64,000 nt of DNA from Candidatus Bathyarchaeota archaeon. GTDB taxonomy: Archaea > Thermoproteota > Bathyarchaeia > 40CM-2-53-6. Positions 2,393-29,020 of this stretch are shown piece after piece. The stretch is taken from positions 145,863 through 209,862 of the forward strand of contig CAVWAQ010000002.1 in the NCBI GenBank assembly GCA_963753065.1. The letters run 5' to 3'. Position 1 is the first letter of the stretch. Every line of letters begins with the position of its first letter. The notes under the pieces are model-generated. The model searched no databases and was not told the DNA's origin. It worked only from the letters and a program-made list of their open reading frames with translations. The translations under genes were made by a program, and so were the position numbers.

Positions 2393-3856
2393 CTAGGCTA
2401 TTCCATGGTAGAGTTCTTCGCACAACGCGGAGAGTCTGGGGCTGAGCCGCACAGGCGCCTCGGCTACAACCGCAGGATCCCTGAATTCCTGCGGGACACT
2501 GTCCATCTGTTTCTTTCCATACTCGCGAGTTTCGAGCAAGGATGGCACGCTGTATGCCAGTCGTCCCTTATCGATCACCTTTGTAAGAAGTGGGCGAGCG
2601 ACAAGGCCTGGGAAGATCTCCTCGTCTATTGCTACGATGTCTTCCTTGATTAGGCCTGAACTGTCGTAGGCGCGATGTATCTGCTTGAGTTCGGGAATCG
2701 TGACCTTCGCTGGGCTCAGTTTCACCCGAGGAATACTTTCCGAGCCCCGGCGGAGTTCGACCAGCTTGTAGATGCCTGGTAGAGCCGGGTCCTCTCTTGA
2801 TGTGGTAAGTTCTGTTCCGACGCCGAAAGAATCGATCGGAGCTCCTTTCGCGATCAGATCCCGGATCTTGTATTCGTTGAGGTCTCCGCTTGCGAAGATC
2901 TTCGTGCTCTTGTGTCCTGCTGTGTCGAGGATCCGTCTGACCTTCACGCTCAAATCAAGGAGGTCGCCGCTGTCGAGACGTACGAGCGTTGGCGAAACTC
3001 CGAGATTCACAGCTGTCTTTGCTCCTTCGATCGTGTTGTAAGTGTCGATGAGAAGTGCCATGTTATCTGGGAAGGCTTTCTTGTAGGCTAGGAAAGCCTC
3101 TCGTTCTGAGTCGAACGTCATTATGAACGAATGGGCCATCGTTCCGAAGGTCGGTATACCCAATTCGTATCCAGCAAGCAGATTGGAGGTGCCCGTGCAG
3201 CCCCCGATGTACGAAGCTCTTGCTGCGAGAAGTGCGGCCTCTGGGCCATGCGCTCGTCTGGAACCAAACTCGACAACATCTCGGCCTTTCGCGGTCTCGA
3301 CGACCCTAGACGCTTTGCTAGCGATTAGAGTCTGGAAATTGATCATTGTCAGCAGATATGTCTCAACAATCTGTGCTTCAATGATACTCGCTTCAACTTG
3401 GACGAGAGGTTCTCCTGGGAAGATTACGGTGCCCTCTGGAACTGCCCAAACGTCGCCCCTGAATCTGAAATCCTTCAAGTACTCGAAGAATTCCCGGCTG
3501 ATGTGACGGAAGGATGGATGCTGTCTGATGAATTGTATCTGCTCATCGGTGAATCTCAGGTTGAGAATGTAGTCAAGAGCTTGCTCCAGCCCCGCCGCGA
3601 TTATGTAGGAGAAGTTCTTCGGGAGATGCCTGACGAATAGCTCGAAACCGGCCTCTCCAGGTATATTGTTCTCGAAGTAGGCGGCGGCCATGGTCAATTC
3701 GTAGAGGTCAGCAAGCATTGACGCGTTGGAGGCTGTGACAAATAGGCCGCGCGGTCTCTCCAGCTTCACCATCTCGGGCACCATCGGCTGACAGAAATCA
3801 TACATAAGAAGCACATAAGGCCGCAGATTGCGGAGCCCAAACGCTCGGCAAGCCAC
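2393..3856 (-). CDS. Nicotinate phosphoribosyltransferase (NAPRTase)
   Basis: The N-terminal motif ASMLADLYELTMAAAYF and a length of 487 aa are characteristic of the PncB family. Confidence 0.85.
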   Translation of the reverse strand: MACRAFGLRNLRPYVLLMYDFCQPMVPEMVKLERPRGLFVTASNASMLADLYELTMAAAYFENNIPGEAGFELFVRHLPKNFSYIIAAGLEQALDYILNLRFTDEQIQFIRQHPSFRHISREFFEYLKDFRFRGDVWAVPEGTVIFPGEPLVQVEASIIEAQIVETYLLTMINFQTLIASKASRVVETAKGRDVVEFGSRRAHGPEAALLAARASYIGGCTGTSNLLAGYELGIPTFGTMAHSFIMTFDSEREAFLAYKKAFPDNMALLIDTYNTIEGAKTAVNLGVSPTLVRLDSGDLLDLSVKVRRILDTAGHKSTKIFASGDLNEYKIRDLIAKGAPIDSFGVGTELTTSREDPALPGIYKLVELRRGSESIPRVKLSPAKVTIPELKQIHRAYDSSGLIKEDIVAIDEEIFPGLVARPLLTKVIDKGRLAYSVPSLLETREYGKKQMDSVPQEFRDPAVVAEAPVRLSPRLSALCEELYHGIA

Positions 3857-4661: not shown

Positions 4662-5637
4662 GTGGAAGTTGAGAGCTTCATGGCTGAGCAAAAGAAAAAG
4701 CGGTTCAAGTTCAAGTACGGCACACCCCGTTTCCTTGTCCAGCTCGTGTCGCTCCTGCTTCTGAACGGATTACTGCTAGCGGAACTCTACCCTAACCTGA
4801 ACCTTCAGCGGTATCCTGTGACTCTCCCCATCCTACTGAGCATAAACGCACCAACTAATCTCGCATACGGGAGCCTAGACGTGATCCAAGTAGCTCTAGC
4901 TAGTCCGGTTGTCCCTTGGGTTGCACTGGCTTTCGTGTTCGTGATCGGGGCAGTGCTAGGCAGAGCGTTCTGTGGTTGGGTTTGTCCGATGGGGTTCATT
5001 CAAGACATGGTCACGATCGTAAGAGGCCCGTTTGGCCAAGTCGACGTACGAATGCACGAGAGTGGGAAACGATTCAAGTATTTTGTGCTCGGGGTCGCGC
5101 TATTGGTCAGCGTATCGCTAGCCATATCGCTTTCAATGGGAATCGGAGCCGATTACAAGAACTCACTAGGGATCTTCGCAAACGGACTACTGATTCCCTT
5201 GGCACCTGAAGGCACTCTATTCTCAATGATTCCGCGAGCCATAATGTATCTAAGGCTGGAAGTGGCCCCGACGTTCCTGGACAAGATTTCCGCGAATCAG
5301 TTGGTAACGTGGATCCGATCAGTCCCGCTCATGATCTACGCCGGACTAATACTCCTGTTCGTATTCTTCTACGGCGCATACAAGGTCCCACGCTTTTGGT
5401 GCAGATACTCTATGTCCAGTCGGAGCCAAGATGGCTCCGTTCCAGAAGTACAGCTTCTTAGGCATGAAGAGAGATCCCGTGAAATGCAGCAAATGTCCAC
5501 ACTGCGAGGCAGCCTGCCCAATGCAGATCCGAATCCTATCGCTGCCTTGGGAGAAGTTCAACGATCCGGAATGCATCCTATGCGGGGAATGCGCAGACGC
5601 ATGCGCCAACAACTCGTTGAGCTACAAATTCCCCTAA
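4662..5637 (+). pseudogene. NapH/MauN-like membrane polyferredoxin (CxxCP motifs plus a C-terminal 2x[4Fe-4S] ferredoxin domain), apparent +1 frameshift near 5406-5412
   Basis: Frame 0 encodes transmembrane segments with GRAFCGWVCP and PRFWCRY. The expected continuation LCPVGA...CSKCPHCEAACP...CILCGECADAC is in the +1 frame (ORF 5431..5637). One extra T in tggtgcagatacTctatgtcc breaks the frame. Confidence 0.6.
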
Positions 5638-7907: not shown

Positions 7908-8009
7908 GCCGGGGTCGGTCAGATGTGATGCGACCACCGAAGGCCGAACGGTTCAGGCGGCAGCCTGCAGAGCTGCAGTATATGGGTTCGACTCCCATCC
8001 CCGGCTCCA
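7908..8009 (+). tRNA. tRNA-Cys (anticodon GCA) with a 26-nt intron between positions 9 and 10
   Basis: 5' exon GCCGGGG-TC, intron about 7917-7942 (GGTCAGATGTGATGCGACCACCGAAG), then D arm GCCG/AACGGTTC/AGGC. Anticodon arm is GCAGC-CTGCAGA-GCTGC, variable loop AGTAT and T arm ATGGG-TTCGACT-CCCAT. The acceptor 3' strand CCCCGGC gives a perfect 7-bp stem with the 5' strand, followed by discriminator U73 (the Cys identity element) and an encoded CCA. The spliced length would be 76 nt. A second copy of GCCGGGG lies 13 nt upstream (7895-7901). Confidence 0.6.
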
Positions 8010-9082: not shown

Positions 9083-9193
9083 TGGCGGGCGGGGCAGGAT
9101 TCGAACCCGCGACTCCAGGCTCCGGAGGCCTGTGCCCTATCCTGGCTAGGCGTCGGGAGAAACTACGCAGTCTATACCCGCCCATACCCGCCC
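9083..9193 (-). tRNA. tRNA-Arg (anticodon CCG) with a 23-nt intron between positions 9 and 10; the upper coordinate includes an upstream duplicate of the acceptor segment
   Basis: Read on the minus strand: acceptor GGGCGGG-TA (9183..9175), intron about 9174..9152 (TAGACTGCGTAGTTTCTCCCGAC), D arm GCCT/AGCCAGGATA/GGGC with A14, G18G19, A20 and A21. Anticodon arm is CAGGC-CTCCGGA-GCCTG and T arm GCGGG-TTCGAAT-CCTGC. The acceptor 3' strand CCCGCCC is followed by G73 and an encoded CCA ending at 9083. The spliced length would be 78 nt. A second GGGCGGGTAT copy lies immediately 5' (9193..9184). Confidence 0.65.
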
Positions 9194-12800: not shown

Positions 12801-13115
12801 TCAGTCGCTCTTCTCGATCTTGATGTCTATGGTGGAGACGTTCCGCATGTCTCCTCCTTCGCCGATCACTTGTGTTCCGATCGTGATCTCCTTGACGGAC
12901 AGTTTGCCGCCGAAGAATCTCCTCCTGACAACCTCGACAACATCGACCGCTGTGCTAATCGCTCTTCCTCGAGCTTTAATGGTCAGGATCTTTGCTCCGC
13001 TCTGGTAGTGCATCATGACCGCAGTCGCGTAGGCCATTACGGGTTTCTTCCCGATGAGTATCGTATCAGGGGGGATGGGCTCTCTCGGGGCAATCGGCGC
13101 TGGCTTTTCTGTCAT
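12801..13115 (-). CDS. albA: Alba DNA/RNA-binding chromatin protein
   Basis: Core sequence DTILIGKKPVMAYATAVMMHYQSGAKILTIKARGRAISTAVDVVEVVRRRF...RNVSTIDIKIE. The ORF extends to 13226, but the Alba domain begins at the internal Met (MTEKPAPIA). Confidence 0.85.
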   Translation of the reverse strand: MTEKPAPIAPREPIPPDTILIGKKPVMAYATAVMMHYQSGAKILTIKARGRAISTAVDVVEVVRRRFFGGKLSVKEITIGTQVIGEGGDMRNVSTIDIKIEKSD

Positions 13116-13624
13116 GCAATGCTCACCTCCGAAACAGAGTAATCTTGGGGTAAGTGCAAGCCTATGCTTTCGAGAAGTTGACTTAAGCCTTACCATCCCA
13201 GGGTCTTCAAGCGTGAGGCAAAGCACGAGAATTGACGCAGTTGAGTATATTCGACGTGCTTCGTGAATGTCGTATTCTCCTCATGCTTTCACTGTATGGG
13301 CTTGTTCAGTGTTTCAGACGCCATTGTAGAATCGTCTGTAAAGACCTCAAATCATTCGATGGAGACACACAACGAGCGCCACTCCGCTGTGGTCTCTCCA
13401 ATGCGTCTCTTGAAAAACACAAGAATGAATCCTATTTAAGCACCGGATTTGTGAGTGGTTCCAACTTTCGCTCCTGCCTCATGATATGTTCGTTCTCTTG
13501 GACCTGAGAGGGACTTGTTGTGAGAAAGCATCTCTTGGGATCATACTCTTTTTGACAGCTTTCTTTCCAGAAATCTAATGGCACTAGGACCCCTAAACGA
13601 CGAACTCACAACTCAATTTGTGGG

Positions 13625-14293
13625 TTGCACAATCTAGGAGAGACAATCTTGTCATATGGCTTCAGCAACTGGGATGAACCACCGCTTCGGACGCGAATAA
13701 CAGGCAAGATCCATCGCGGTGAATCGTTGAACGAAAGACTGGCCGAGGCGATCTTCCGTCTGCAAGCTCAAGAGAATAGGCTCGCAGGGGCAGCGGCTCG
13801 GATGCAGCAGCACGACAAGGAGATGTTTGACAAGTGCGTGCGAGCTCAAGTTGCCAAGGATAATGCCCGAGCAGCAATGTACGCTAACGAGTGCGCGCAG
13901 ATCAGGAAGATGGCCAAGATAACATTGCAGTGCCAGCTGGCACTCATGCAGGCTTCCCTGAGACTCGAGACTGCTCGTGAATTCGGGAACATCGCTTCCA
14001 TGATGGCCCCTGTCGCATCGGTTGTCAAGTCAGTACAAGGGCACATCACTGGAATCATCCCTGAAGTGGGATTCGAGCTCGCCGAGATCGGAGAGGTGTT
14101 AAACAATGCCGTGTGCGACATTGGCGGCCCTCTCGGCTCAGATTCAGCAGTACAAGCCTCTGGTGAAGATGCACAAAAGATCCTCTCAGAGGCCAATGTC
14201 CTAGCTGAACATAGAATTCAGCAACACTTCCCAGAGATACCAACGGCTCCGTCTCCTCTGACTCAGAGGACAGCAGAGCAGGGATTCCAGTAG
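13625..14293 (+). CDS. ESCRT-III (Snf7/CdvB) family protein, paralog 1
   Basis: Helical-hairpin core ANECAQIRKMAKITLQCQLALMQASLRLETAREFGNIASMMAPVASVVKSV, followed by an acidic MIM-like C-terminal region (SGEDAQKILSEANVLAE). Paralogous to ORFs 15029 and 17474. Confidence 0.75.
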   Translation: MHNLGETILSYGFSNWDEPPLRTRITGKIHRGESLNERLAEAIFRLQAQENRLAGAAARMQQHDKEMFDKCVRAQVAKDNARAAMYANECAQIRKMAKITLQCQLALMQASLRLETAREFGNIASMMAPVASVVKSVQGHITGIIPEVGFELAEIGEVLNNAVCDIGGPLGSDSAVQASGEDAQKILSEANVLAEHRIQQHFPEIPTAPSPLTQRTAEQGFQ

Positions 14294-14322
14294 CAGTACC
14301 GAACCCTTCATGGTGGATACTG

Positions 14323-15015
14323 ATGGTAATGCTCGTAGAGGATGTTGGAAGATACCTAGGCAAAACGGTTCAAACCCCCTACAACACCCCCGTCGGAAAA
14401 CTGATTGGTGTAGACACAAACATTCGCAACGAAGTAACTCAAGTCAACGTCGAGCAGGAATCAGGAATCCTCGCGAAATACCCCGCCACGCAAGTGAAGG
14501 TGGAGAACGGGTCTGTCGTGGTTACGCCTGCGTGGAAGCACGAAGCTTCGGACTTAGAACGCGAGTACTCGACCGCGTCGAAGCGTATTACCGCGCTAAA
14601 GTCCCTCCTCTCCGACGGCGATATCGACACAACAGCGTATAGAGAAATGGCCAGCGAATATGAAGGCGCCATACATGCAATGGAAAGTCGCCGTATTGCG
14701 CTTGTTGATTCGCTCAAGGAAAGAACGCTGAAGCTGGAAGATGAAATACGAAGACTCCAGCTAGTATTGACAGACAACAAGCTGCTCTATTCGTCTGGGG
14801 TGGTTGAGGCGATTGCGTACAAAGACGCCTCTCAAATCATACACGGGATGCTGAACGGGCACCTTACTGAGAAGAAGGACGTTCAGGCAACGCTTGAGAG
14901 CTTGACCTCCTTGGAAAGAGGTCCGCAAGTACAAGACCAGACTTTGCCTCGTAGAATTGACCAAGGGATCCCAGATTATGTTGTTGTGAAAATCAACGAA
15001 GAGATGCCTGCATAG
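14323..15015 (+). CDS. cdvA: CdvA-like protein (N-terminal PRC-barrel-like beta domain plus coiled coil)
   Basis: The N-terminus LGKTVQTPYNTPVGKLIGVDTNIRNEVTQVNVE...VKVENGSVVVTP resembles the PRC-barrel of CdvA. A long coiled-coil segment follows. The gene sits immediately upstream of the CdvB and CdvC homologs. Confidence 0.6.
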   Translation: MVMLVEDVGRYLGKTVQTPYNTPVGKLIGVDTNIRNEVTQVNVEQESGILAKYPATQVKVENGSVVVTPAWKHEASDLEREYSTASKRITALKSLLSDGDIDTTAYREMASEYEGAIHAMESRRIALVDSLKERTLKLEDEIRRLQLVLTDNKLLYSSGVVEAIAYKDASQIIHGMLNGHLTEKKDVQATLESLTSLERGPQVQDQTLPRRIDQGIPDYVVVKINEEMPA

Positions 15016-15028
15016 GCAGTGGCACAAT

Positions 15029-15802
15029 TTGACGATAGTCGATAGAATCGTTCCGCATCTCCATCAGGTCCCCCTCAAGGATCAAATCGTCAAAGCGAGG
15101 TCTAGACTTGAAATTCAAAAAGATAGACTTGAGGGCATGGCAATCAAGATCCAGCAGAAGGATCAGGAGCTTCTCGAACGATGCGTTGGCGCACAGGCGA
15201 ACAATGATCTTGCTCGCGCACGATTGTACGCGAACGAGTGCGCCGAGGTAAGAAAGATTGCTCACATAATTATCAGCGGCCAACTCGCGCTTGAGCAGGT
15301 TGTCTTCAAGCTCGACATGGCGCTTGAGTTCGGAGAACTCTTGGGCGACATGAAGCCCATTGTCGGCATTGTGGCTGAAACAAAAGGAAGGATCTCCAAC
15401 GTTGTTCCGCACATAGCGAACGAACTTGGAGAGATAAACACCATGCTACAGGACCTCAGCGATGAAGCTGGTCCGGTTCTCGACAACGCAGGAGCTGTCC
15501 AGACAACCAGCGAAGATGCGAAGAAGGTCCTTGAGGAGTCGTCTGTGATTGCACAGGAGCGGCTGTCTCAGACATTTCCCAAACTGCCGGAGCTTACTCT
15601 CGAACACAGGAACGCTTCGCCTGAGCCGATGCCTGCTGCGGCGAGCGAGACAGAAGTGGACCGGCGCGTCTACGAGTACATCAAGAGCCACCAAGGGAAC
15701 CTTCACGTATCCGATGCAGCACGCCTCATCGGGATACCGTCAGACAGAGTGAAGATCGCCCTCGACCGGCTGGAAAGTGAGGGAAAGGTAGTTGTCGAGT
15801 AG
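15029..15802 (+). CDS. cdvB: ESCRT-III (CdvB) family protein with a C-terminal winged-helix domain
   Basis: ESCRT-III core YANECAEVRKIAHIIISGQLALEQVVFKLDMALEFGELLGDMKPIVGIV plus C-terminal RVYEYIKSHQGNLHVSDAARLIGIPSDRVKIALDRLESEGKVVVE, a wH domain like that of crenarchaeal CdvB. It overlaps the cdvC start by 11 nt. Confidence 0.75.
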   Translation: MTIVDRIVPHLHQVPLKDQIVKARSRLEIQKDRLEGMAIKIQQKDQELLERCVGAQANNDLARARLYANECAEVRKIAHIIISGQLALEQVVFKLDMALEFGELLGDMKPIVGIVAETKGRISNVVPHIANELGEINTMLQDLSDEAGPVLDNAGAVQTTSEDAKKVLEESSVIAQERLSQTFPKLPELTLEHRNASPEPMPAAASETEVDRRVYEYIKSHQGNLHVSDAARLIGIPSDRVKIALDRLESEGKVVVE

Positions 15803-17009
15803 CACTCCACACAGGAGCCCGAGCAGCCTTCAGACAGTCGGATCTCCTTCTCCCTTTCGTTCTGAGACCAGATCGGGTTCGGCCTCTGAAGAGCTCGAGA
15901 GCTTAGCCGTCCGCTACGCGAACGAGGCGATCCAATTTGACCGACAGGGTTCGAAAGGGATGGCCATATCACGCTATCAGAGGGCATCTGAGGTGCTGCT
16001 CAAGCTATGCTCGCTGTACCCCGAAGCACCAACGAACAAAGTCTACATGGAGCACATCGAGAACTTCCGGCGAAGAATCAAGGAACTGAACGATCAAGGC
16101 TCGCGTGTTGGTGTAAATCCCTCCTCGCAGCTCGCTGTTGAGCAGATAGAGCATTTCGCTCCTATCCAGAAGCCGAATGTTAGATGGAACGACATTGCCG
16201 ACCTGCGCGACGCTAAGATGGCTGTTGAGGAATCTGTAGTCTATCCGGCTAGGCGTCCGGACTTGTTCCCGCTGGGGTGGCCTCGGGGGTTACTGTTTTT
16301 CGGCCCTCCAGGCTGCGGCAAGACCCTTCTAGCGGCTGCAATTGCGACTGAAATCAATGCCGATTTCTTCTGTGTCGACGCCGCAACTGTAATGGACAAG
16401 TGGCTGGGTCAGTCCGAGAAGAATGTCGCGAATTTGTTTCAGGACGCTAGGCGGGCGTCGGGTTCGGGGCGCCCTGCGATAATCTTCATCGACGAAGTGG
16501 ACTCTCTTGTTGGAATTAGGGGGGACGAGGTGGGCGGAGAAGTGCGTACCCGGAACCAATTCCTCAAGGAGATGGATAGCATTTCGGACAAGTCCAACCC
16601 ATCCCATGTGTATGTTGTTGGTGCAACAAATAAGCCGTGGGCACTTGACGAGGCGTTCATCCGCCGCTTTCAGAAGCGAATATTCGTTCCGTTGCCTAAC
16701 GTTGAAGCGCGAACTGAACTCGTCTCCATATACTCGAAAGACCTGACCACCAGTGGTGATGTTAGCACCGACGAGCTAGTCCATATGACAGAAGGCTACT
16801 CTGGAAGCGATATACGCGACATACTACAGGGAGCACAGATCAAGGTCGTCCGGGAGCTTTTTCAGTCTCAGAAGATCACAGAACGTTCACGGCCGAGAGC
16901 CATCTGCATGGAAGATATTCGAGAGGTCCTTCGCAAACGACGTCCAAGCGTGTCGCCGGAGATGCTTCGATTCTATGACAAGTGGTTTGAAAGGTACAAG
17001 GCGTTGTGA
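15792..17009 (+). CDS. cdvC: Vps4/CdvC AAA+ ATPase (MIT domain plus meiotic-clade AAA)
   Basis: N-terminal MIT-like helices (AVRYANEAIQFDRQGSKGMAISRYQRASEVLLKLCSLYPEAP), Walker A GPPGCGKT, Walker B IIFIDEVD and a Vps4-type C-terminal helix. Confidence 0.9.
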   Translation: MSSSTPHRSPSSLQTVGSPSPFRSETRSGSASEELESLAVRYANEAIQFDRQGSKGMAISRYQRASEVLLKLCSLYPEAPTNKVYMEHIENFRRRIKELNDQGSRVGVNPSSQLAVEQIEHFAPIQKPNVRWNDIADLRDAKMAVEESVVYPARRPDLFPLGWPRGLLFFGPPGCGKTLLAAAIATEINADFFCVDAATVMDKWLGQSEKNVANLFQDARRASGSGRPAIIFIDEVDSLVGIRGDEVGGEVRTRNQFLKEMDSISDKSNPSHVYVVGATNKPWALDEAFIRRFQKRIFVPLPNVEARTELVSIYSKDLTTSGDVSTDELVHMTEGYSGSDIRDILQGAQIKVVRELFQSQKITERSRPRAICMEDIREVLRKRRPSVSPEMLRFYDKWFERYKAL

Positions 17010-17559
17010 GGTCATGCAAATGTCAGCAGATTCAACCGACCTGAAGATCCTTGCAGAACTGGTGGAGAATGCGAAATCATCGTTCGTAGATATCGGCAAG
17101 AAGCTCGATCTTCACCCGAACGTGGTTGCATACAGAGTAAGCAAGCTCGAACGTTTAGGGATAATCAAGGACTACACGACTCGGCTCGACTTGGAGAAAC
17201 TCGGCCTTTCGGAGCAGGTCTTTGTTGCTGCGAGCTTACCAGGCAACTCCCAGCGCGAGCAAATCCTTAAAGAGATCGCCTCAATGCCTCAGACAATCCA
17301 AGTTGTGAGCTCCCTAGGCGAACCTGGAAACATCGTGTTCCTGGCTGGAAAGAACAAGGCTGATGTCGACAAGACAATGTGGAGGCTCAGAAACATGAAT
17401 GTGAAAATCGAGTACACCGGCTCGATAGTGCGCACCTATGATGAGGGAGGCCTTTGCAACTTCCTGAAACTTCTTGCGAAAGAATTCGAGGAGTCGAGGA
17501 GCCTTTCCAGACAGCCGGTCCCGGATCAACCTTGGGAAGGGGGGAAAGAGAGTGTTTAA
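16975..17559 (+). CDS. Lrp/AsnC-family transcriptional regulator (HTH plus RAM domain)
   Basis: HTH segment DLKILAELVENAKSSFVDIGKKLDLHPNVVAYRVSKLERLGII followed by a RAM fold. The true start is probably the internal MQMSADS. Confidence 0.8.
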   Translation: MTSGLKGTRRCEVMQMSADSTDLKILAELVENAKSSFVDIGKKLDLHPNVVAYRVSKLERLGIIKDYTTRLDLEKLGLSEQVFVAASLPGNSQREQILKEIASMPQTIQVVSSLGEPGNIVFLAGKNKADVDKTMWRLRNMNVKIEYTGSIVRTYDEGGLCNFLKLLAKEFEESRSLSRQPVPDQPWEGGKESV

Positions 17560-17572
17560 GGAAAACAGATCG

Positions 17573-18160
17573 ATGATGGGCAAAGTCAAGGAAGCTTTTC
17601 ACCCCACACCAGTCCGCAAGCGGATCATGGATGCGCTGCTAAGCCTCAAGATGCAGCTTTCACGCTTGGACAGGACAGCTCAGAAGATGCAGCAACGTGA
17701 CGCTACACTTTACAGCAAGTGCGTAACGGCGGTGCAGCAGAAGAACACAGAACTCGCGTCCATATATGCCAGCGAATGCGCCGAGATACGCAAAGTCGCG
17801 AAGGTCGTCCTGCACAGCCAACTCGCGTTGGAGCAAGTCGCTCTGAGACTGGACCTAGTCCGCGAATTCGGTGATGTCGCGCAGACCATGAGACCTGTCG
17901 CATCCGTTGTCAGGACGATCAAGACGCAGCTCCAAGGCATACTCCCTGAAGTGTCGCTTGAACTTGCATCAGTGAACGAGTCACTCGAAGACCTCGCATC
18001 ACAAGTCGGCGACGCCGCGGAGGAATCCTTTGCGGTACCCGTTTCAGGCGAGGACGCACAGAAAATCCTCAGCGAAGCAAATATCGTCGCAGAGCAAAAG
18101 ATGCGTGAACGTTTCCCAGACCTGCCCCCTGTTCCTGTGCAAGAAGCCAGAATCCAGTGA
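17573..18160 (+). CDS. ESCRT-III (Snf7/CdvB) family protein, paralog 3
   Basis: Core ASECAEIRKVAKVVLHSQLALEQVALRLDLVREFGDVAQTMRPVASVV and C-terminal SGEDAQKILSEANIVAE. The ORF opens at 17474, but the likely start is MMGKVKEAF at 17573. Confidence 0.75.
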   Translation: MMGKVKEAFHPTPVRKRIMDALLSLKMQLSRLDRTAQKMQQRDATLYSKCVTAVQQKNTELASIYASECAEIRKVAKVVLHSQLALEQVALRLDLVREFGDVAQTMRPVASVVRTIKTQLQGILPEVSLELASVNESLEDLASQVGDAAEESFAVPVSGEDAQKILSEANIVAEQKMRERFPDLPPVPVQEARIQ

Positions 18161-18255
18161 GATCCGAAAGCTCCTGGATTCGTCTCCTTTTTTCAACCCT
18201 TTTTTCGAAAGGCATATAGCCTGTCCGTTCACGCTCGCCCACATTGTGGGAATGA

Positions 18256-18669
18256 ATGAAGAACTTCGCCAAAGCCATCACTCTGTCAACAAGGGAGAAG
18301 TATCAACTTGTCGATCTCACGGAGATGGTTGAGGAGATCGTATCCGAGTCTCAAGTTGCAAATGGCTTATGTTTGGTGCATGCATCGCATGCAACCGCCG
18401 CCATAATCTGCAATGAGCATGAGAGCGGATTGATTCACGACCTTCTCAAGAAGGTGAAGGAGATCTTCCCTCCCAGTGCCGGATACCTGCACGATAGAAT
18501 TGACGACAATGCATCCGGTCACATAGCTTCAGCGCTGATCGGTGCATCACGTACGTTCCCAATCGAGGATGGGCGACTCGTCCGTGGCACTTGGCAGAAT
18601 ATCTTTCTCCTGGAACTTGATGGCCCAAGATCGCGACGCACGGTGAATGTGCATATCATTGGCGAATGA
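18256..18669 (+). CDS. YjbQ/UPF0047 family protein (secondary thiamine-phosphate synthase-like)
   Basis: 137 aa, with motifs LCLVHASHATAAIICNEHESGL and DGPRSRRTVNVHIIGE typical of YjbQ. Confidence 0.7.
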   Translation: MKNFAKAITLSTREKYQLVDLTEMVEEIVSESQVANGLCLVHASHATAAIICNEHESGLIHDLLKKVKEIFPPSAGYLHDRIDDNASGHIASALIGASRTFPIEDGRLVRGTWQNIFLLELDGPRSRRTVNVHIIGE

Positions 18670-21710: not shown

Positions 21711-23153
21711 ATGAGCAAAGAGATTGGAATCACTGTCTCTAAGAAAGACGATCTGTCCGAGTGGTACACTCAGGTCGTCACGAAGTCAGGGCTTGCTGAT
21801 TACGCTAGTGTCAAAGGATTCATGGTCCTGATGCCGTATGGCTACTCGATCTGGGAGAAGATCAAGGAATTCCTTGACAAGCGTCTCAAGGCAATGGGTC
21901 ATAGTAACGCCTACTTCCCACTGTTGATACCTGAGAGTTTTCTCAGAAAGGAAGCTGAGCACTTCTCAGGTTTCACACCTGAAGTCTTCTGGGTGACCTC
22001 GGCCGGAAATGACAAGCTCGGAGAACGGTTAGCAATTAGACCTACCTCTGAGACCGTCATCTACGACTCGTATGCAAAATGGATCAGAAGCTGGAGGGAC
22101 CTACCGCTCTTGATCAACGTATGGAACTCAGTACTTCGAGCTGAGATCAAGATGACCAAGCCGTTCATGCGAACTTCGGAATTCCTCTGGCAAGAGGGCC
22201 ACACTGTCCACGCCGACAAGGAGGATACCGACGCGGAGGTCATGAGAATCTTCGAATTGTACAGACAGCTCATAGAGGAACAGCTTGCCATTCCGGCGCT
22301 CGCTGGGTCCAAGACGGACCGAGAGAAATTCGTTGGCGCGCTGTATACAATGACTCTCGAATCCATGATGCCTGACGGAAAAGCGCTCCAGATGGGCACA
22401 TCGCACAACTTGGGACAAAACTTCTCAAAGGTTTTCGAGATTAGGTACCTGGGCAATGACGAGGAAACGCACTACGCCTGGAACGCTTCATGGGGCGTCT
22501 CTTGGCGACTGATCGGAGCAGTCATCATGCTTCATGGAGATGATCGAGGCTTAGTAATTCCACCGCGCATCGCCCCGATACAAGTTGTTGTCGTACCGAT
22601 TCCTTACAAGGCAGAGGGAGTCGACATTTTGGGTCGGGCCAAGTCACTAGCGGACAAGCTGCAGGAAGCCGGCATCAGCGTAAACCTCGACGACCGGGCG
22701 CAGTACACACCTGGGTGGAAATTCAACGAGTGGGAGCTGAAAGGGGTCCCTGTCAGGATTGAGATTGGCCCTCGAGATGTCAGCCGTCAGCAGGTTACGA
22801 TCGTCCGTAGAGACACATCAGAACGCTCAGCGATTCCTGAGATGGATGTGGTCAATGAGACGAAGAGATTGCTCGACGCTGTTCAATCATCCTTGTTCGA
22901 GAAGGCCAGTCGTGCACTCAAGCAGGCTATCCACGACGTTCACACTTACGACGACCTGAAACGGACCATCGAGACCGAAGGCGGGTTTGTGAGGGCCTGC
23001 TGGTGCTCGGAGACTGCGTGTGAAGACCGAATCAAGGACGAGACTGGCGCCACTATTCGTGTGGTTCCTGTACATGATGAACAGGTCTTCTCGGAATGTG
23101 TTTGCTGTGGAAAGACCGCCAAGAAGGTCGTCTACTTCGCCAGAGCATACTGA
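21711..23153 (+). CDS. proS: Prolyl-tRNA synthetase, archaeal/eukaryotic type
   Basis: Class II motifs (FRAEIKMTKPFMRTSEFLWQEGHT; GTSHNLGQNF) and the archaeal-type C-terminal zinc-binding domain that ends in Tyr. Confidence 0.9.
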   Translation: MSKEIGITVSKKDDLSEWYTQVVTKSGLADYASVKGFMVLMPYGYSIWEKIKEFLDKRLKAMGHSNAYFPLLIPESFLRKEAEHFSGFTPEVFWVTSAGNDKLGERLAIRPTSETVIYDSYAKWIRSWRDLPLLINVWNSVLRAEIKMTKPFMRTSEFLWQEGHTVHADKEDTDAEVMRIFELYRQLIEEQLAIPALAGSKTDREKFVGALYTMTLESMMPDGKALQMGTSHNLGQNFSKVFEIRYLGNDEETHYAWNASWGVSWRLIGAVIMLHGDDRGLVIPPRIAPIQVVVVPIPYKAEGVDILGRAKSLADKLQEAGISVNLDDRAQYTPGWKFNEWELKGVPVRIEIGPRDVSRQQVTIVRRDTSERSAIPEMDVVNETKRLLDAVQSSLFEKASRALKQAIHDVHTYDDLKRTIETEGGFVRACWCSETACEDRIKDETGATIRVVPVHDEQVFSECVCCGKTAKKVVYFARAY

Positions 23154-23235
23154 CAGCCTGTCGCGATGCCTGCTTTACGGCGGGCACAAGGTTTAAGCGA
23201 AGTCTCTTAGAACTAGGCCGTAGTCGTGGATACGA

Positions 23236-23514
23236 ATGGGAAAGAAAAGGAAATCCGGAGGACGCAAGGGAGGCTCAAGAGGCAGCAGCACACTGGTACA
23301 ATGCACCAACTGCGGGATGCAGGTGCCACGTGACAAGGCAAAGCGAGTCACTAGCTTCGTCTCATTAGTGGAACCATCCCTTGCTCGGGAGCTGCGTGCC
23401 CACGGCGCTTACATCGCTCGACAGAAAGTCTTCAAGTATTACTGCATTTCATGCGCAGTTCACTTCGGAGTGTCCAAGGTCCGAGCACGTGACGAGAGAC
23501 GATTCGCGTACTAG
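23236..23514 (+). CDS. rps26e: Ribosomal protein eS26
   Basis: MGKKRKSGGRKGGSRGSSTLVQCTNCGMQVPRDKAKRVT...YYCISCAVHFGVSKVRARDERR aligns to S26e, including the CxxC...CxxC zinc ribbon. Confidence 0.8.
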   Translation: MGKKRKSGGRKGGSRGSSTLVQCTNCGMQVPRDKAKRVTSFVSLVEPSLARELRAHGAYIARQKVFKYYCISCAVHFGVSKVRARDERRFAY

Positions 23515-23531
23515 ACGCTCGAAGCAACTGC

Positions 23532-24449
23532 CTAGGCTTCTCTGATCTCGCCCATTAGCTTAGTCCTTCTTCTCACCTCTTCATCAGTGAGGATGAAGTT
23601 TGGCCGCAGACTCTCAACCATGATCGACGCTGCGGCGGAAGCATAGAGGCACGAAGAACGAATGTTTTCTGTTCGACTGAACTCTGCCAAGAAGGCGCCA
23701 GCGTAGAATTCCCCTGCTCCGGTTGGATCGACTGCCATGGTCTCGAAGGCGGGGACACGGAAGCACGTTCTTCCGTCGCAGACAAGCGACCCGTTTGCTC
23801 CAAGGGTGACGATTGCTGTTTTAGCGCCCCATTCGACAAGCTTCTTCGCTGACTCCATGTGGTTCTGCAGACCGGTAATTACCTGAGCCTCCAGCCCGTT
23901 CGGTTTGACGAAATCCACCCGCTCTAAGAGTTTCTTGAGTTGTCCTCTTTCACAGAAGTGTTCCACTTCTCCGTCCTTTCCGAGGCGGCGAAGCAGACCC
24001 TGTGGGTCTAAGAATACCTGGCTATGCGATGATTCAACGAGACTGGTAATCTCAGGGACATCAATCTCAGAGAATACTGGACCAAGCAGGAGATAGCGGC
24101 TTTGCTGACACTCTGACCAAACACCTCTGAGTGATATCTTGCCCGCGTCGGCTATCAGTCTGAGCGTGCGTTCCCCGTTTTCAGCGTTCTTAATGCTGAA
24201 GCCAGTGGTTCGATCTGTCGTTCTCGTGTTGATCACCTTGACTCCATGGCGTCTCATTATGGTGTGGAAATCGTGGCTGAAATCAGTTCCAATGTTTCCA
24301 ACAAGTGCTACTTTCTTCATGCCGAGCCTTTTTGCGGAAAGACACACGTTCGTGCTGCATCCAGACAATATCCGCCGGTTGCTCCTCGTTCGTAGGGTGT
24401 TTATGAAGTCGTACACGGGGTTCCCTATGGCGACTAGGTCGTATGTCAT
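23532..24449 (-). CDS. PfkB-family carbohydrate or nucleoside kinase (ribokinase fold)
   Basis: N-terminal GNPVYD and VGNIGTDFSHD, and a C-terminal GAGD-like anion-hole motif (DPTGAGEFYAGAF). Confidence 0.75.
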   Translation of the reverse strand: MTYDLVAIGNPVYDFINTLRTRSNRRILSGCSTNVCLSAKRLGMKKVALVGNIGTDFSHDFHTIMRRHGVKVINTRTTDRTTGFSIKNAENGERTLRLIADAGKISLRGVWSECQQSRYLLLGPVFSEIDVPEITSLVESSHSQVFLDPQGLLRRLGKDGEVEHFCERGQLKKLLERVDFVKPNGLEAQVITGLQNHMESAKKLVEWGAKTAIVTLGANGSLVCDGRTCFRVPAFETMAVDPTGAGEFYAGAFLAEFSRTENIRSSCLYASAAASIMVESLRPNFILTDEEVRRRTKLMGEIREA

Positions 24450-24626
24450 CTTAGGTAGCTCTCATGTTTCCTCTGTACATGATGAAGTTCCCGAAATCAA
24501 TCTGGCGATTACTGCTAGATCACACTTCTTATGAGCCTTGAATGCAAGGGGTTTGCTGTGGTCAGACGTGAGGCCGGCGGCTGAAAGAATAGTGTGCTGC
24601 CTTTGTGAGTCCTGCGTGGGGTTCGC

Positions 24627-25223
24627 TTGATCGGTAGACTGTCGCGATTCGTGGAGCCTGGATTAGGTCGGCTTGCGAGAGGCCTTCACGGTCTCGGTCT
24701 GAAACCAAACCACATCACGCTAATGTCCTTTTGCTGCAGCGTGGCTGCGGCTATCGCATTTGTCGTTGTGGCCGAACCTTCCCTCAAGGGAGTCTCCGCA
24801 GGTATCCTTCTTCTCTTGTCCGGACTTCTTGATGCGACGGACGGTGCAATGGCTCGACTGTACGGTGAGGTATCGCATTTTGGTGCATTCCTAGATTCGG
24901 TGCTCGACCGAATTTCTGAGATCGTCGTCTACTGGAGTCTTGTCTACTCGAAACTCGTTGACTGGCCGATCGGATTGGCTGCTCTTTCGGGTTCTCTAAT
25001 GGTTAGCTATGCTCGCGCGCGTGCCGAGCAGCTGGGGGCTGAGATGAAAGGAGTCGGTATCGCAGAACGTCCAGAACGTCTCCTCATTCTGATAGTGGCG
25101 GCTTTCGTGGGTCAACTCGACGCAGGTGTTTTCCTGATAGCTTTGTTCTCTGCAATAACGGTGGTCCAGAGAATCAATCACGCAAGATCTACCATGACCG
25201 ACGCTCAGCGTCCGGCCAAGTAG
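24627..25223 (+). CDS. CDP-alcohol phosphatidyltransferase family enzyme
   Basis: Membrane protein with a DGxxAR...G...D...D signature (LLDATDGAMARLYGEVSHFGAFLDSVLDRISE). Confidence 0.75.
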   Translation: MIGRLSRFVEPGLGRLARGLHGLGLKPNHITLMSFCCSVAAAIAFVVVAEPSLKGVSAGILLLLSGLLDATDGAMARLYGEVSHFGAFLDSVLDRISEIVVYWSLVYSKLVDWPIGLAALSGSLMVSYARARAEQLGAEMKGVGIAERPERLLILIVAAFVGQLDAGVFLIALFSAITVVQRINHARSTMTDAQRPAK

Positions 25224-25378
25224 CGGAGGACAGAGCACCGATTGTGGAGCGCCTGCCTTGAAGGCACGCCGTGGACCGTCTCGCAAGCGTTGCGAAGAAT
25301 GCCGGAGACGTCGCAAGCGGGACAAGCAGAGAACCTGGCACGCCAGGCATCCTGAGTACTACCAGATGAAAAACATGG

Positions 25379-25416
25379 GTGTAGCACACTGTGTGCTACA
25401 CAGAGAATTCTTACGG
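25379..25416. repeat. Palindromic element R1 (GTGTAGCACAC-T-GTGTGCTACAC) followed by AGAGAATTCTTACGG
   Basis: A 23-bp near-perfect palindrome plus a conserved tail. A second copy with a compensatory-variant palindrome lies at 25657. Confidence 0.6.
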
Positions 25417-25656
25417 CTACGCATTCATGGTAGGCGATGAGTCACGCCTTCACCGCGTTGCTCAGGGCTCTCAAACGGGCCCCCGTTTCCCTGAAACGGG
25501 CCCCCCTTTGGGGGATATGATCGTGAACCACCTCTTCCATGGAAAGCGGCACCTAGTGTCCTAAACTCTGCAGCGTATAGATGTGCTGATCAAGACCCTT
25601 GAATTGCAGATCTTCCGCGTCGGCATAGCAGGCCTGGACATGCAGGAGAATGCAGG

Positions 25657-25693
25657 TGTAAGACGCAGTGTCTTACACAGAGAATTCTGACGC
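25657..25693. repeat. Palindromic element R2 (GTGTAAGAC-GCAGT-GTCTTACAC) followed by AGAGAATTCTGACGC
   Basis: The outer GTGTA/TACAC arms and the AGAGAATTCT tail are the same as in R1. The inner arms differ from R1 but remain self-complementary. Confidence 0.6.
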
Positions 25694-26057
25694 ACATGCT
25701 CCCCGACTAGCGAGCGTAGGGGGTACCGGGCTGCTCGGCAACCCGGTTACCGGGGATACTATTGTGGTCAATTTGCCTCTTACCGAGGATCAAATCGAGA
25801 GAACCCGCGGCACTCCCAAGAGAGCGCGGATGCCGTTTGTACTGCAGCTTGCGCGCATACCGGCTCTGAACATTTGCGGCCGAGCGCTAGCGCTTGCTTC
25901 TCCTGGCTCCTACGGAAGGTCGTCCTCTCGGATTTGTTGCTAAGACGAGCCTCTCGACTGAGACGGCTTCCAACTGTGGTTACCCAAGGAAAACGCAGAC
26001 ACGCTTGAATAGGTCCTAAGCACGAAGGTTTGCGGCACAGGAGAGGGCATCTCAGAA

Positions 26058-26264
26058 TTGGGCAAAGTCTCGAAAGGGGTCAAATGCAACGTCACTGGAT
26101 GCACCCAGACTGCCTTGCGTTCCGTTTCACCAGATGCGGTGGCGCAGGCGAAGATGGACGTCGGAGGCGCCAGACGTGCATACCTGTGCCGAACGCACTA
26201 TAAAGAGATGAAGAAGCGGTCAAAGAAGGACCGACAGATAGAGAGATGGCGCCTGTCAGGATAA
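26058..26264 (+). CDS. Small basic putative zinc-binding protein
   Basis: 68 aa with C-x4-C ... C-x2-H (KCNVTGC ... CRTH) and a Lys/Arg-rich C-terminus. No family assignment is possible by eye. Confidence 0.3.
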   Translation: MGKVSKGVKCNVTGCTQTALRSVSPDAVAQAKMDVGGARRAYLCRTHYKEMKKRSKKDRQIERWRLSG

Positions 26265-26280
26265 TGCGGAGTGAGTATCA

Positions 26281-28134
26281 TTGCGAGTCCTATTGATCCA
26301 CGCTGAGTCCTTCGAGTATCAAGTGCGGGAGAAGGCAGTTGAAGAACCAGAGAAGTTCGAGACTTCTCGTTCTCACGGCCAGATGGAGAATGTCTTGGTC
26401 GCGTTTTGCACGATCGAGAAGGACGATGAGAAAGACCCGGTACGGGTCGCGGCAAACGGGTCCGAAGCGGTCAGAGAGGTTGCCGATCAGGTCAGAACCA
26501 AGAACATTATGGTCTACCCATATGCGCACCTCTCAAGTAGTCTAGCCTCAAGAGATCCAGCAATCAAAGTAGTCGCGACAATGGAAGATCTTCTCAAGAA
26601 GATGGGCTTCACAGTTCAAAGAAGTCCGTTCGGCTACTACAAGAGCTTCCGATTACATTGCTTGGGGCATCCTCTGGCGGAGCTGTCCCGAACCATAACG
26701 GCGGAGAAGAAGCCTGAGGAACGTGCGCCGATTCAGACGGAATACATGATAATGGATCTTGAAGGCGGCTTGCACGCTCCAGGGGAGTATCGCTACTCGA
26801 AGGGAGAAGAGGAGTTCAGAACGCTCGTTGAAAAGGAAGCCCTCAAGAAAGGGCTTGCTGGCGGCGGCGAGCCGCGTTTCCTGGACTACTGCAGGAAGTT
26901 CGGAATCGAGTGGGAGCCGTATTCGGATGTCGGCCACATGAGATACGGTCCGGAAGCTACGCTCATCTTCGATCTGATTGCCGATTATTCGTGGGCCATT
27001 GCAGGCCACGTAGGTATACCAGTCCTTCAGGTTCGCGGGACAAACTTGTTCGATCTCTCTGTGAGACCCGTGAAGGAGCATGCAGACCTATTCGGCGCGA
27101 GGCTGTACAAGGTCGACTTGGACGAGAAGAGCTTCGTCATGCGGTATGCCGCTTGTCACCAGCAATTCGCGATGGTGAAGGACTGGACTATCAGCTATCG
27201 GAACGTCCCATTCGGCACATTCGAAGTTGCAGATAGCTATCGACTTGAGCAAAGCGGAGAACTGCTGTTATGCTTCAGAGTGAGAAAACTGCACATGCCC
27301 GACCTTCACATCTACTGTCGTGATCTAGAGAACTCGAAGAATGTCTCCATCAACACGCACAAAGTCATCTATGAGGAGATAGGGAAACTCGCAAGAGACT
27401 ACGTCTCAGTATACAACACGACAAGGAGTTTCTTTGAAGGAAACAAGCCATACTTCATTGAACTCGCAAAGCTCGAAAGAAAGCCTATACTCCTCAACTT
27501 TGTGCCAGAGGGGATCTACTACTGGGTCCTCAACATCGAGTATCATATCATCGATGAGCTAGACCGGCCTAGGGAAATAGCCACGTTCCAGATCGACATG
27601 GGCAACGCCAAGAGATTCAACATCTCATACGTTGACCAGAACGGTGCGAGACAGTTCCCGCCGATAATTCACACCGCACTCATTGGAACCGTTGAGCGTT
27701 ACATCTTTACGATCTTGGACAGTTGTGCTAGGATGGAGAGAGAGGGCAAGAAACCTCAACTCCCCCTCTGGTTGGCTCCAAGCCAGGTTAGGATCATACC
27801 CGTAACAAGAGAATTCTTGCCATATGCTGATGAACTCGCCAAGAAATTGAACGATGGAATAGTCAGAACCGATGTCGACGATTCCGACGAGACTGTTGAG
27901 AAGAGAGTGCGGGACGCCGAGATGTTGTGGGTTCCGTACATCATAGTCGTCGGAGCCAGAGAGAAGGGAGTGACTGAGTTGCCGGTTCGTGTCAGGGAAA
28001 TAGGTACGCAACCCAGAATATCGATAGAGAAATTGGCGGCTGAGATTAGGGAGAAAACGGCAGGGTATCCATTCCGGCCCCTCACGCTTCCTCTTCACGT
28101 TAGTAGCAGGCCAGGTTATCGATCATATCAGTGA
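26281..28134 (+). CDS. thrS: Threonyl-tRNA synthetase, archaeal type with the N-terminal archaea-specific editing domain
   Basis: The N-terminal MRVLLIHAESFEYQVREKAV editing-domain signature, the class II catalytic core and the C-terminal anticodon-binding domain. Confidence 0.9.
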   Translation: MRVLLIHAESFEYQVREKAVEEPEKFETSRSHGQMENVLVAFCTIEKDDEKDPVRVAANGSEAVREVADQVRTKNIMVYPYAHLSSSLASRDPAIKVVATMEDLLKKMGFTVQRSPFGYYKSFRLHCLGHPLAELSRTITAEKKPEERAPIQTEYMIMDLEGGLHAPGEYRYSKGEEEFRTLVEKEALKKGLAGGGEPRFLDYCRKFGIEWEPYSDVGHMRYGPEATLIFDLIADYSWAIAGHVGIPVLQVRGTNLFDLSVRPVKEHADLFGARLYKVDLDEKSFVMRYAACHQQFAMVKDWTISYRNVPFGTFEVADSYRLEQSGELLLCFRVRKLHMPDLHIYCRDLENSKNVSINTHKVIYEEIGKLARDYVSVYNTTRSFFEGNKPYFIELAKLERKPILLNFVPEGIYYWVLNIEYHIIDELDRPREIATFQIDMGNAKRFNISYVDQNGARQFPPIIHTALIGTVERYIFTILDSCARMEREGKKPQLPLWLAPSQVRIIPVTREFLPYADELAKKLNDGIVRTDVDDSDETVEKRVRDAEMLWVPYIIVVGAREKGVTELPVRVREIGTQPRISIEKLAAEIREKTAGYPFRPLTLPLHVSSRPGYRSYQ

Positions 28135-28483
28135 CAACATTTTATATGTCATGAACAGGCCGTAAGTAGCAGGATAGTGATCTCAAATGAACCGTGACCA
28201 GTTGTACGGAGGTACAATTTTCGCGATCTCACTCATTGTTGCCTTGGGGTACCTTGTTGCTTTCTTCCCGCAGGTCCTTTCGCTGCCAGGATGGTTGCAC
28301 GAGTGGGCCGTGGGGCTGCCTGTGCTTCTTTTCGTGCTTGCCGTCCTCGTGATTGCGATGTGGATTGGATGGACGATGATGACGACTCCTCCTCCAGCAC
28401 CGTTGGAGCCCGAGACGCTACCGGAGACCAAGACCGAACAGAAGAACTGACGATAAGAGGCAATGCCGTCCCACCCCGACTGA

Positions 28484-29020
28484 TTGCATGTCGCGATAGA
28501 GCTAACTACCTTGCCCGCGCCACACTGGGATAGGAAGACGGGGAGGATGCACAGGAAGTTGGATCTCGCATTCTGGGCTACCGTGATACTGATAACTGTA
28601 ATAGGAACGGTAGGTGGTGTGCTGTTCAAGTCAGGTACGAACGTGCTGGGAACCATCGACTTCAAACGACTTCTCGATATCAGAATGTCCACCACCACGC
28701 TTGTCTTTGGTGGGCTGGTTGTGTTCAGCGTCTTCCTATTCTTCTATAGCGGCTACAGCCTGCGGGGTCAAGTCTTTGCCGCAGAGTACCTTTTCACTCC
28801 GATAATCTTCTTGGCTCTAGTAATGATGGCTCTCTCGCGTTTTCTCATCGGGATCCCCATGTCTGTAACGGGGCTGGGACGACTAACCGGACTGCTCACA
28901 GCACTTACGGTGCTAACCACGGCTGTTGCAAGTAACCTCATCTTCAAGGAAACATTCTCCACGCGAGTGCTCGTAGGGATGGCCCTCGCGGTCGTCGCCG
29001 TTGTCCTCATAGGAGAGTAG
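28484..29020 (+). CDS. Small multi-pass membrane protein (EamA/SMR-like transporter fold)
   Basis: Four to five hydrophobic helices; the C-terminal NLIFKETFSTRVLVGMALAVVAVVLIGE resembles EamA/ArnE-type proteins. Confidence 0.45.
   Translation: MHVAIELTTLPAPHWDRKTGRMHRKLDLAFWATVILITVIGTVGGVLFKSGTNVLGTIDFKRLLDIRMSTTTLVFGGLVVFSVFLFFYSGYSLRGQVFAAEYLFTPIIFLALVMMALSRFLIGIPMSVTGLGRLTGLLTALTVLTTAVASNLIFKETFSTRVLVGMALAVVAVVLIGE

Follow-up and report, generated by a model that had tools for sequence, protein, structure and literature searches.

Genomic context of the hairpin pair

The stretch of DNA analysed here (the window, 64,000 nucleotides at its full length) contains two hairpins, R1 and R2, between the gene for archaetidylinositol-phosphate (AIP) synthase (24627–25223) and that for a 68-aa zinc-ribbon protein (26058–26264), in a neighbourhood that also includes genes for ProRS, a PfkB kinase and ThrRS. 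For the AIP synthase, as for a neighbouring transposase family, the closest relatives with a name are Bathyarchaeia, and the source is accordingly an uncultured TACK archaeon. The 834 nt separating the AIP synthase and zinc-ribbon genes (25224–26057) hold no recognisable gene, in agreement with a previous sequence-only reading of the window, but they do hold fragments of ORFs that recur in related loci (Table 1).

The unusual length of this intergenic region, to which the same reading had drawn attention, is real, and the reason for it is strain-specific inserted DNA. In two contigs of a close relative (L033/L034), whose flanks are 95–97% identical to those of the window, the AIP synthase gene and thrS lie 359 nt apart, compared to 1057 nt in the window, and a much shorter sequence stands in place of positions 25243–26000 (Table 1). 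The segment 25243–26000 was furthermore unalignable in the orthologous loci L004, L006, L009 and L035. At the same site, L035 carries a 316-aa orphan gene, L004 two small genes, L005 an HTH gene together with another ORF, and L006 and L009 unalignable sequence of 525–748 nt. In L004 and L035, ACTCTTGAR stands to the left of the cargo and ACGCTTGAATAGG to its right as brackets, and L033 has a single ACTCTTGAATAGG; the positions noted for this site are 26001–26013 in the window, ~3675–3690 in L033, ~3655–3670 and 5262–5275 in L035, and ~2860–2875 in L004. Judged from these comparisons, the site between the AIP synthase and zinc-ribbon genes looks like a recurrent insertion hot spot, and the bracket sequence resembles the core of an att-like site or a duplicated target. 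The 316-aa ORF of L035 (4029–4979, minus strand) has no Pfam match on record, and just beyond it lies a 34-nt piece (5198–5231) of the mosaic family described below, matching L010 1144–1175 and L026.

Only the last ~60–110 nt before the zinc-ribbon gene are conserved (83–94% identical in L006, L009, L033 and L035), the conservation starting at ~25976 in L006, L009 and L035 and at ~26001 in L033. The zinc-ribbon/thrS unit probably has its actual promoter and 5' region in the stretch ~25976–26057.

These comparisons bear directly on the regulatory roles that had been considered for the palindromes, namely as an element of the zinc-finger gene and thrS or as an operator pair for the Lrp or RAM-domain proteins encoded in the window. 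Neither role is tenable, with the insert missing or unalignable in the relatives named above and the palindromes absent from L006, L009 and L033, in which the AsnC/RAM genes or, as a minimum, the ProRS–PfkB–AIP synthase–thrS neighbourhood have been retained. Since relatives without the insert keep these genes, R1 and R2 are not Lrp/RAM operators, nor are they a conserved control element for thrS or the zinc-ribbon gene. For annotation, the long region upstream of thrS is a strain-specific insert with gene fragments and not a conserved regulatory or ncRNA locus, and the removal of this false lead is the main value of the present analysis.

Table 1. Positions of the insert, the hairpin units and the surrounding gene pieces in the window
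Feature	Position	Strand	Description
Strain-specific segment	25243–26000		758 nt; 57 nt instead in the close relative L033/L034
Recurring mosaic stretch	25240–25800		Seen in metagenome loci L010–L027, in other gene contexts
ORF fragment left of R1	25240–25378	+	3' part of a longer ORF of L015/L024 (..KRCQECRRRRNRDKQRT..); reads into R1
R1 hairpin	25379–25401	+	GTGTAGCACAC-T-GTGTGCTACAC; 11-bp perfect arms, effectively 10 bp and a 3-nt loop
R1 tail	25402–25411	+	AGAGAATTCT, then TACG
Y ORF fragment	25412–25552	-	..VHDHIPQRGARFRETGARLRALSNAVKA*LIAYHECVAV; small orphan ORF family
Tandem 21-nt units (two)	25470–25510		CTCAAACGGGCCCCCGTTT / CTGAAACGGGCCCCCCTTT
R2 hairpin	25656–25678	+	GTGTAAGAC-GCAGT-GTCTTACAC; nine Watson-Crick pairs and a G.T closing pair on the plus strand
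R2 tail	25679–25688	+	AGAGAATTCT, then GACG
Hairpin and start of a small ORF	25742–25800	+	CCCGG-TTA-CCGGG; overlaps a GGGGA ribosome-binding-like site

Sequence of R1 and R2 and expectation by chance

Re-reading of the sequence confirmed that R1 and R2 are perfect palindromes (Table 1). A repeat search of the window placed both in a 38-nt direct repeat (25378–25415 and 25655–25692, 277 nt from start to start) with 82% identity. The pattern GTGTA-N(7–19)-TACAC matched twice in the 64 kb, at R1 and R2, against an expectation of 0.22, with two matches being reached in 3 of 100 shuffles, and exact matches to ACACAGAGAATTCT in the window were confined to the R1 and R2 sites. Perfect hairpins with a stem of at least 9 bp were present at four loci in the window compared to ~1.9 in simulations, and a 9-bp hairpin is by itself unremarkable in this DNA. 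What goes beyond chance in R1 and R2 are the common outer arms, the 13-nt inner part and the identical 3' stretch of 15 nt. Two more perfect hairpins, at 1117–1140 (TTCCACCTA-CGAGGC-TAGGTGGAA) and 49054–49077 (GCTTGGAGGG-GTTT-CCCTCCAAGC), are unrelated to R1 and R2.

The tail had likewise been described as palindromic, which is correct for AGAATTCT only. Since AGAATTCT is changed to AATTTT or AATTTC in related copies without compensation, its symmetry is probably incidental. No Rfam family matched the R1/R2 region at the gathering score, relaxed thresholds gave chance-level matches only (E ≥ 0.6), and the modules of the related loci were also without an Rfam match.

A contig of the same strain from Logan (L002) has its first position at window position 25420 and breaks 9 nt after the R1 tail, which suggests a branch in the assembly graph caused either by another R1-type copy or by a polymorphism in the sample.

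A hairpin family with conserved pairing

Metagenome contigs were scanned with the pattern GTGTA-N(9–17)-TACACAGAGAATTCT, which yielded 18 matches. An identical inner length of 13 nt (GTGTA-N13-TACACAGAGAATTYT) and recognisably related flanks were found for 13 of the 18, and these exact-pattern copies all reside on contigs of related uncultured archaea, which bears out the expectation that further copies exist outside the window. Relaxed searches in the same loci recovered more copies, including truncated ones and one with altered outer arms. The scan of genome representatives gave one chance match lacking a hairpin, viral contigs contained no copy, and comparison with plasmid and phage DNA gave no match.

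Across 11 distinct copies, 109 of the 110 stem cells (99.1%) form a standard pair, and compensatory double changes are seen at 4 of the 10 stem pairs. Neither the observed pairing nor the covariation score was reached in any of 500 shuffles, and slid controls paired at 16–62%. The near-complete pairing together with the compensatory double changes demonstrates that the stem is under structural selection, and thereby substantiates the earlier proposal that symmetry rather than sequence is conserved; single-strand base pairing is what selection maintains. The inner stem occurs as GCACAC/GTGTGC, GCACGC/GCGTGC, GCCCGC/GTGGGC, AGACGC/GCGTCT, AGACAC/GTGTCT and AGACGC/GTGTCT, and in L021 as CGGACGC/GTGTCGG. 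The invariance of the outer arms and of the tail is partly a matter of construction, both being fixed by the search pattern. The L021 copy (GTGTCGGAC..GTCGGACAC) lies outside this pattern and has its outer A–T pair replaced by C–G, and the outer arm can thus also change with compensation.

Another explanation is that the hairpins have no function and go back to a palindrome that arose by chance, underwent one duplication and has been drifting since. Both window copies do lie in decaying, dispensable DNA, and hairpins with a 9-bp stem arise by chance at ~2 loci per 64 kb. Drift would, however, break the pairing, whereas nearly all stem cells pair and double changes have accumulated at four positions, and the 33-nt core is conserved better than the rest of the mosaic, which has been reshuffled. 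We therefore regard this explanation as highly improbable.

Regarding the folding strand, the closing pair read on the plus strand is G.U in six copies, A–U in three and G–C in two, and the six copies with G.U would have a C.A mismatch if read on the minus strand. This pattern weakly favours the plus strand, an argument that is weakened by many of the G.U copies being identical by descent. As the folding molecule, RNA and single-stranded DNA both fit the conservation of pairing. A larger fold from R1 into the 21-nt repeats, in which RNAalifold pairs the tail with a downstream AGGGCUCU, was rejected, since it showed one-sided changes only and a covariation term of ~0.

The palindromes had also been proposed to be either a family of RNA hairpins or operators for a dimeric regulator. 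The first half of this proposal stands in so far as the family is real and its pairing conserved, and the second fails for the Lrp/RAM proteins of the window, the insert being absent from relatives. In a broader form, the palindromes would be duplex operators read by a cassette-encoded, RHH-like small protein or by the local Lrp/RAM regulators, with half-sites that covary because they are read symmetrically. Several features would suit such operators. A small ORF (IVVNLPLTDEEIEAKVAELV..) whose strand-helix pattern is CopG-like begins ~75 nt downstream of R2-type copies, and most hairpins are followed on the minus strand, after 2 nt, by an ATG that opens an apparently intact ORF of the Y family in L014 and L022. 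The symmetry includes the very centre (C-N-G), although a loop of 1 nt is impossible, and homogenisation within a locus, as would be the case for iterons or centromere repeats, is seen for the 21-nt direct repeats nearby. On the other hand, at least four compensatory stem changes have occurred between copies whose flanks are ~90% identical, and each of them would presumably have needed a new protein specificity; the stem changes appear to fit intramolecular pairing better than such repeated specificity switches. No RHH or other DNA-binding family was significantly matched (the best, RHH_3, at E 0.045, was below the cut-off), the local regulators are excluded as readers because thrS and the Lrp/RAM genes are still present in close relatives without the region, and the hairpins occur alike at convergent, divergent and tandem ORF junctions. 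Altogether, an operator function is considered improbable.

Gene pieces around the hairpins

The DNA surrounding the hairpins consists of pieces of small orphan ORFs. Between R1 and R2 lies a fragment of the Y family, which lacks a start and is interrupted by an in-frame stop (TCA on the plus strand at 25442–25444), and whose similarity to intact copies (..YHECVAVAAGL.., P0242 and P0249) ends exactly at the R1 tail. Because at least this piece is disrupted, the hairpins lie among ORF fragments. Proteins of the Y family contain internal repeats of ~50 aa (..VPVSEYVREMVHDHILQRGARFRETGARLRALSNAVKAWLIAYHECVA..), and when 1.84 billion representatives were searched in full with HMMER, only nine relatives were retrieved, one of which is an unrelated tandem-repeat protein of 1106 aa. 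Similarly, searches of Pfam, NCBIfam and PHROGs with the orphan ORFs of the loci gave nothing significant. In a multi-copy count, the minus-strand frame of Y showed 9 synonymous-type versus 14 non-synonymous-type changes, compared to 4 versus 19 on the plus strand in the same phase, and a hand count of two paralogues gave 8/20 synonymous changes on the minus strand versus 4/20 on the plus strand, which weakly favours minus-strand coding between R1 and R2.

Tandem 21-nt units in two to three copies are found at the same position in L014, L017, L019, L021 and L026. They are near-identical within a locus and differ between loci (AAACGGGCCCCCGTTT, AAAGCGGCACCTCTTT and AAAGCGTTACCGCTTT), a pattern of apparent concerted evolution as in iterons, or of gene conversion inside a repeat protein.

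On the other side of R1, a 60-aa ORF on the plus strand runs through the hairpin. No homologue was found among 5.8 billion proteins, and with its best domain match below the cut-off (Pfam HEWD, E 0.0016) it was discarded as a candidate for a real small protein. To the right of R2, a small ORF (VVNLPLTEDQIE..) begins with a GTG at 25764 and is cut off at ~25800, where its similarity to the family ends; the L021 version contains an in-frame indel. Upstream of this ORF lies another hairpin (25742–25756), the 3' arm of which is the GGGGA ribosome-binding-like site. In the window and at the same position in L012 and L027, its stem differs between loci and is nonetheless kept (CCCGG-TTA-CCGGG versus CCCC-GCTTAA-GGGG), and the hairpin may mask the predicted ribosome-binding site.

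The hairpin-plus-tail unit at module joints

Alignment of the copies defines a conserved unit of ~45 nt, comprising semi-conserved 5' bases (..AAAAACATRG, ..ATGCAK or ..TTRATATGTT), the 23-nt hairpin and the 10-nt tail AGAGAATT(C/T)T. The family loci are mosaics of short modules in varying order, in which the 33-nt core of the unit is the best-conserved part. When window positions 23000–29000 were compared by BLAST with the family loci, all matches fell inside 25240–25800 and none in the flanking genes, and no other family piece was found elsewhere in the window. The R1/R2 pair recurs in L024, similarly spaced pairs are present in L026 and L021, and the distance between copies in relatives ranges from 88 to 278 nt. 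The hairpins were found at convergent, divergent and tandem ORF junctions.

The right flanks diverge directly after the 10-nt tail and fall into four classes (TACGGCTACGC.., GAYGCAYATGCTCCC.., CAAACGG.. and CGAGAAATG..), while at least five left-flank classes occur in differing combinations with them. The class with the X fragment (class a) is joined to TACGGC.. in the window, L015 and L024 and to CAAACG.. in L021, the class ..ATGCAK to GAYGCAY.. in many loci and to ACGGCTACGC.. in L026, and the class without the 5' arm to TACGGC.. in L027 and L010 and to CAAACG.. in L026. Seen from the right, TACGGC.. alone is paired with five different left classes. Since the left and right classes reassort at the unit, it is a joint at which modules were exchanged. 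The differences among L012, L015 and L024 start 5 nt from R2 and end at unrelated places with microhomology, and deletions at short repeats, CGACTAKCC for example, could account for them. Integration beside a tRNA gene was not apparent, as a tRNA was present in L021 only, where it points away from the module at a distance of 50 nt, and the other loci had none.

The explanation we favour, at a probability of roughly one half, is that R1 and R2 each represent a lineage-specific hairpin-plus-tail unit of ~45 nt at the joints of fast-decaying mosaic modules, acting in the manner of a PeSL cassette. PeSL cassettes of T4-type phages combine a promoter with stem-loop motifs, are found in hyperplastic regions rich in non-essential genes and mediate modular shuffling (PMC2839356). 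The likeness consists in a short conserved stem-loop motif between small orphan genes, with the flanking modules exchanged there, and is one of function rather than descent: in both cases a stem-loop sits at the borders of variable modules whose flanks are exchanged. The archaeal unit differs in being located in a chromosome and not in a phage, in its much lower copy number and in having no sequence relationship to PeSLs, and it is without a recognisable promoter or U-tract terminator. The unit would be a stem-loop cassette between small orphan genes which, as a transcript, might act as a boundary, terminator or stabiliser and, as a short homology block, could let modules swap by recombination. 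The modules would belong to the flexible genome of their host, the uncultured and probably Bathyarchaeia-like TACK archaeon. This dual role as a transcript-level cassette and recombination patch is the favoured one for the family; the copies in the window are most likely relics that play no role in the expression of the neighbouring housekeeping genes. Given the low copy number and the single mosaic family, the junction pattern could alternatively reflect a small number of old rearrangements with subsequent duplication. Should the junction role prove true, the unit would offer a tractable case of how islets of the flexible genome are assembled in uncultured TACK archaea, with a defined signal of 45 nt.

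As for transcription signals, most copies have no convincing archaeal TATA/BRE on either side, the exception being TTTAATAT in L017 and L019. The tail on the plus strand is not U-rich, and the unit is not a classical terminator in this direction. On the minus strand, R1-type copies show a run of T5–6 beginning 5 nt after the stem, which R2-type copies lack, and promoter and terminator scans, which use a bacterial consensus only, flagged the hairpin followed by a T-run on the minus strand of R1.

Comparison with transposon ends and other palindromic repeats

The main alternative to the cassette is a single-stranded DNA signal of the IS200/IS605 type. The hairpins would then be subterminal palindromes of a degraded non-autonomous element (PATE), in which hairpin and ~10-nt tail form a Y1 (HUH) substrate, and R1 and R2 would mark either both ends of a single element or, with two elements inserted in tandem, the right end of each. 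Elements of this type have similar subterminal palindromes near both ends, on one strand, and no terminal inverted repeats. For IS608, cleavage at the right end takes place 10 nt 3' of the foot of the hairpin, and the palindromes of the two ends are alike and located on one strand (PMC3201880). The hairpin and tail match this geometry, as R1 and R2 are similar palindromes present as direct copies on the same strand, 277 nt apart, within the few hundred nt also seen for archaeal PATEs, and in both systems ~10 nt are conserved 3' of the stem before the sequences diverge. Terminal-only PATEs of ~52 bp and core deletions mediated by repeats are known (PMC3119063), and among the present copies, too, truncated and 'terminal-only'-like ones occur, those without the 5' arm keeping the 3' arm and the tail, with other mobile DNA and short-repeat deletions nearby (PMC3119063; PMC3201880). 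TnpB elements of the IS200/IS605 family are moreover abundant in the lineage and have a right end of similar layout (an imperfect palindrome with 11-bp arms and a 6-nt tail), and the region lies at a hot spot for inserted DNA.

Other observations speak against transposon ends. The empty-site allele of L033 is bounded at 25243 and 26000, far from the hairpins, and there is no precise empty site at the hairpins themselves. The right flanks, with only four classes that each occur in several loci, appear inherited and not the outcome of independent insertions, and the R2-type right flank is itself conserved for at least 15 nt (GAYGCAYATGCTCCC). Neither the bases next to the tail (CCGTA, GCGTC, GCATC, GTTTG and TCTCG) nor those 5' of the would-be left end, where a conserved target of 4–6 nt would be expected, reveal a common target oligonucleotide. 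The copy number is low, with two copies in 64 kb and 13 exact matches in the metagenomes, no matching transposase-bearing element was found, and no tnpA was seen in a non-exhaustive look at the loci inspected. The strain differences among L012, L015 and L024 can be attributed to deletions at short repeats. Taken together, a transposon-end origin is regarded as unlikely, though a degraded PATE of another IS subfamily is possible.

In L019, a TnpB gene lies beside the mosaic modules. The IS to which it belongs (TnpB with a Cas12f1-like TNB domain; L019 1053–2201 in stored orientation, and L028–L032) has 1311 homologues at E ≤ 1e-30. Its right end, ..GTTAACAGAACC, lies ~35 nt after the stop codon and is sharply defined by six copies (L019 and L028–L032), which terminate in ..CAGTTAACAAGTCAGCCNNGNNCCGACAAGTTAACAGAACC with an imperfect palindrome of 11-bp arms 6 nt from the end. 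In the one TnpB family compared, the hairpin was rejected as the end of the adjacent IS, since the five other copies end at GTTAACAGAACC without the motif and the motif in L019 lies outside the IS.

A more active role was also considered, in which the unit would be a recombination or mobilisation signal of archaeal chromosomes, with an HUH-type or novel enzyme cutting or joining the single-stranded hairpin at a fixed distance of 10 nt from the foot. Small orphan-gene modules would in this way be moved and swapped between hot spots of the flexible genome, in a chromosomal archaeal counterpart of integron cassettes or phage PeSL mini-circles. We consider such an active signal rather improbable.

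The REP/BIME sequences of bacteria are palindromic extragenic stem-loop units of ~35–45 nt that resemble IS200/IS605 hairpins and occur in tens to hundreds of copies genome-wide. The tetranucleotide GTAG is conserved in them, and they are found on either side of a RAYT gene. The present family differs from them by its two copies in 64 kb and 13 exact metagenome matches, and has GTAG in R1-type stems only. With none of the viral contigs carrying a copy either, the high copy number of REPs was not found. We know of no RAYT in the host lineage.

CRISPR repeats offer a further likeness in the length of the unit (~33–38 nt), the stem-loop and the conservation of a 3' tail. In CRISPR arrays identical repeats alternate at a regular spacing of 25–50 nt. 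The spacing of 277 nt (88–278 nt in relatives) and repeats that are 82% identical with compensatory changes led to rejection of this possibility; no Rfam CRISPR-DR model matched R1 or R2, and no cas genes adjoin the window copy. The R1/R2 family is best described as a lineage-specific hairpin-plus-tail repeat which separates a small set of dispensable modules of the flexible genome and was their point of exchange, and of which the window contains a decayed copy within strain-specific DNA.

Other features of the window

A cell-division cluster of CdvA, Snf7 (ESCRT-III) and a Vps4-like AAA ATPase is encoded at ~13000–18500 of the window (located by correspondence with L002 7261–11772) and adjoins an HTH_AsnC regulator. 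The cluster helps to assign the organism to the TACK archaea. ARAGORN called no tRNA in the window. Rfam gave tRNA matches at 7942–7998 (plus strand) and 9094–9151 (minus strand), which cover model positions 9/10–63 only and may correspond to intron-containing, split or otherwise atypical archaeal tRNA genes.
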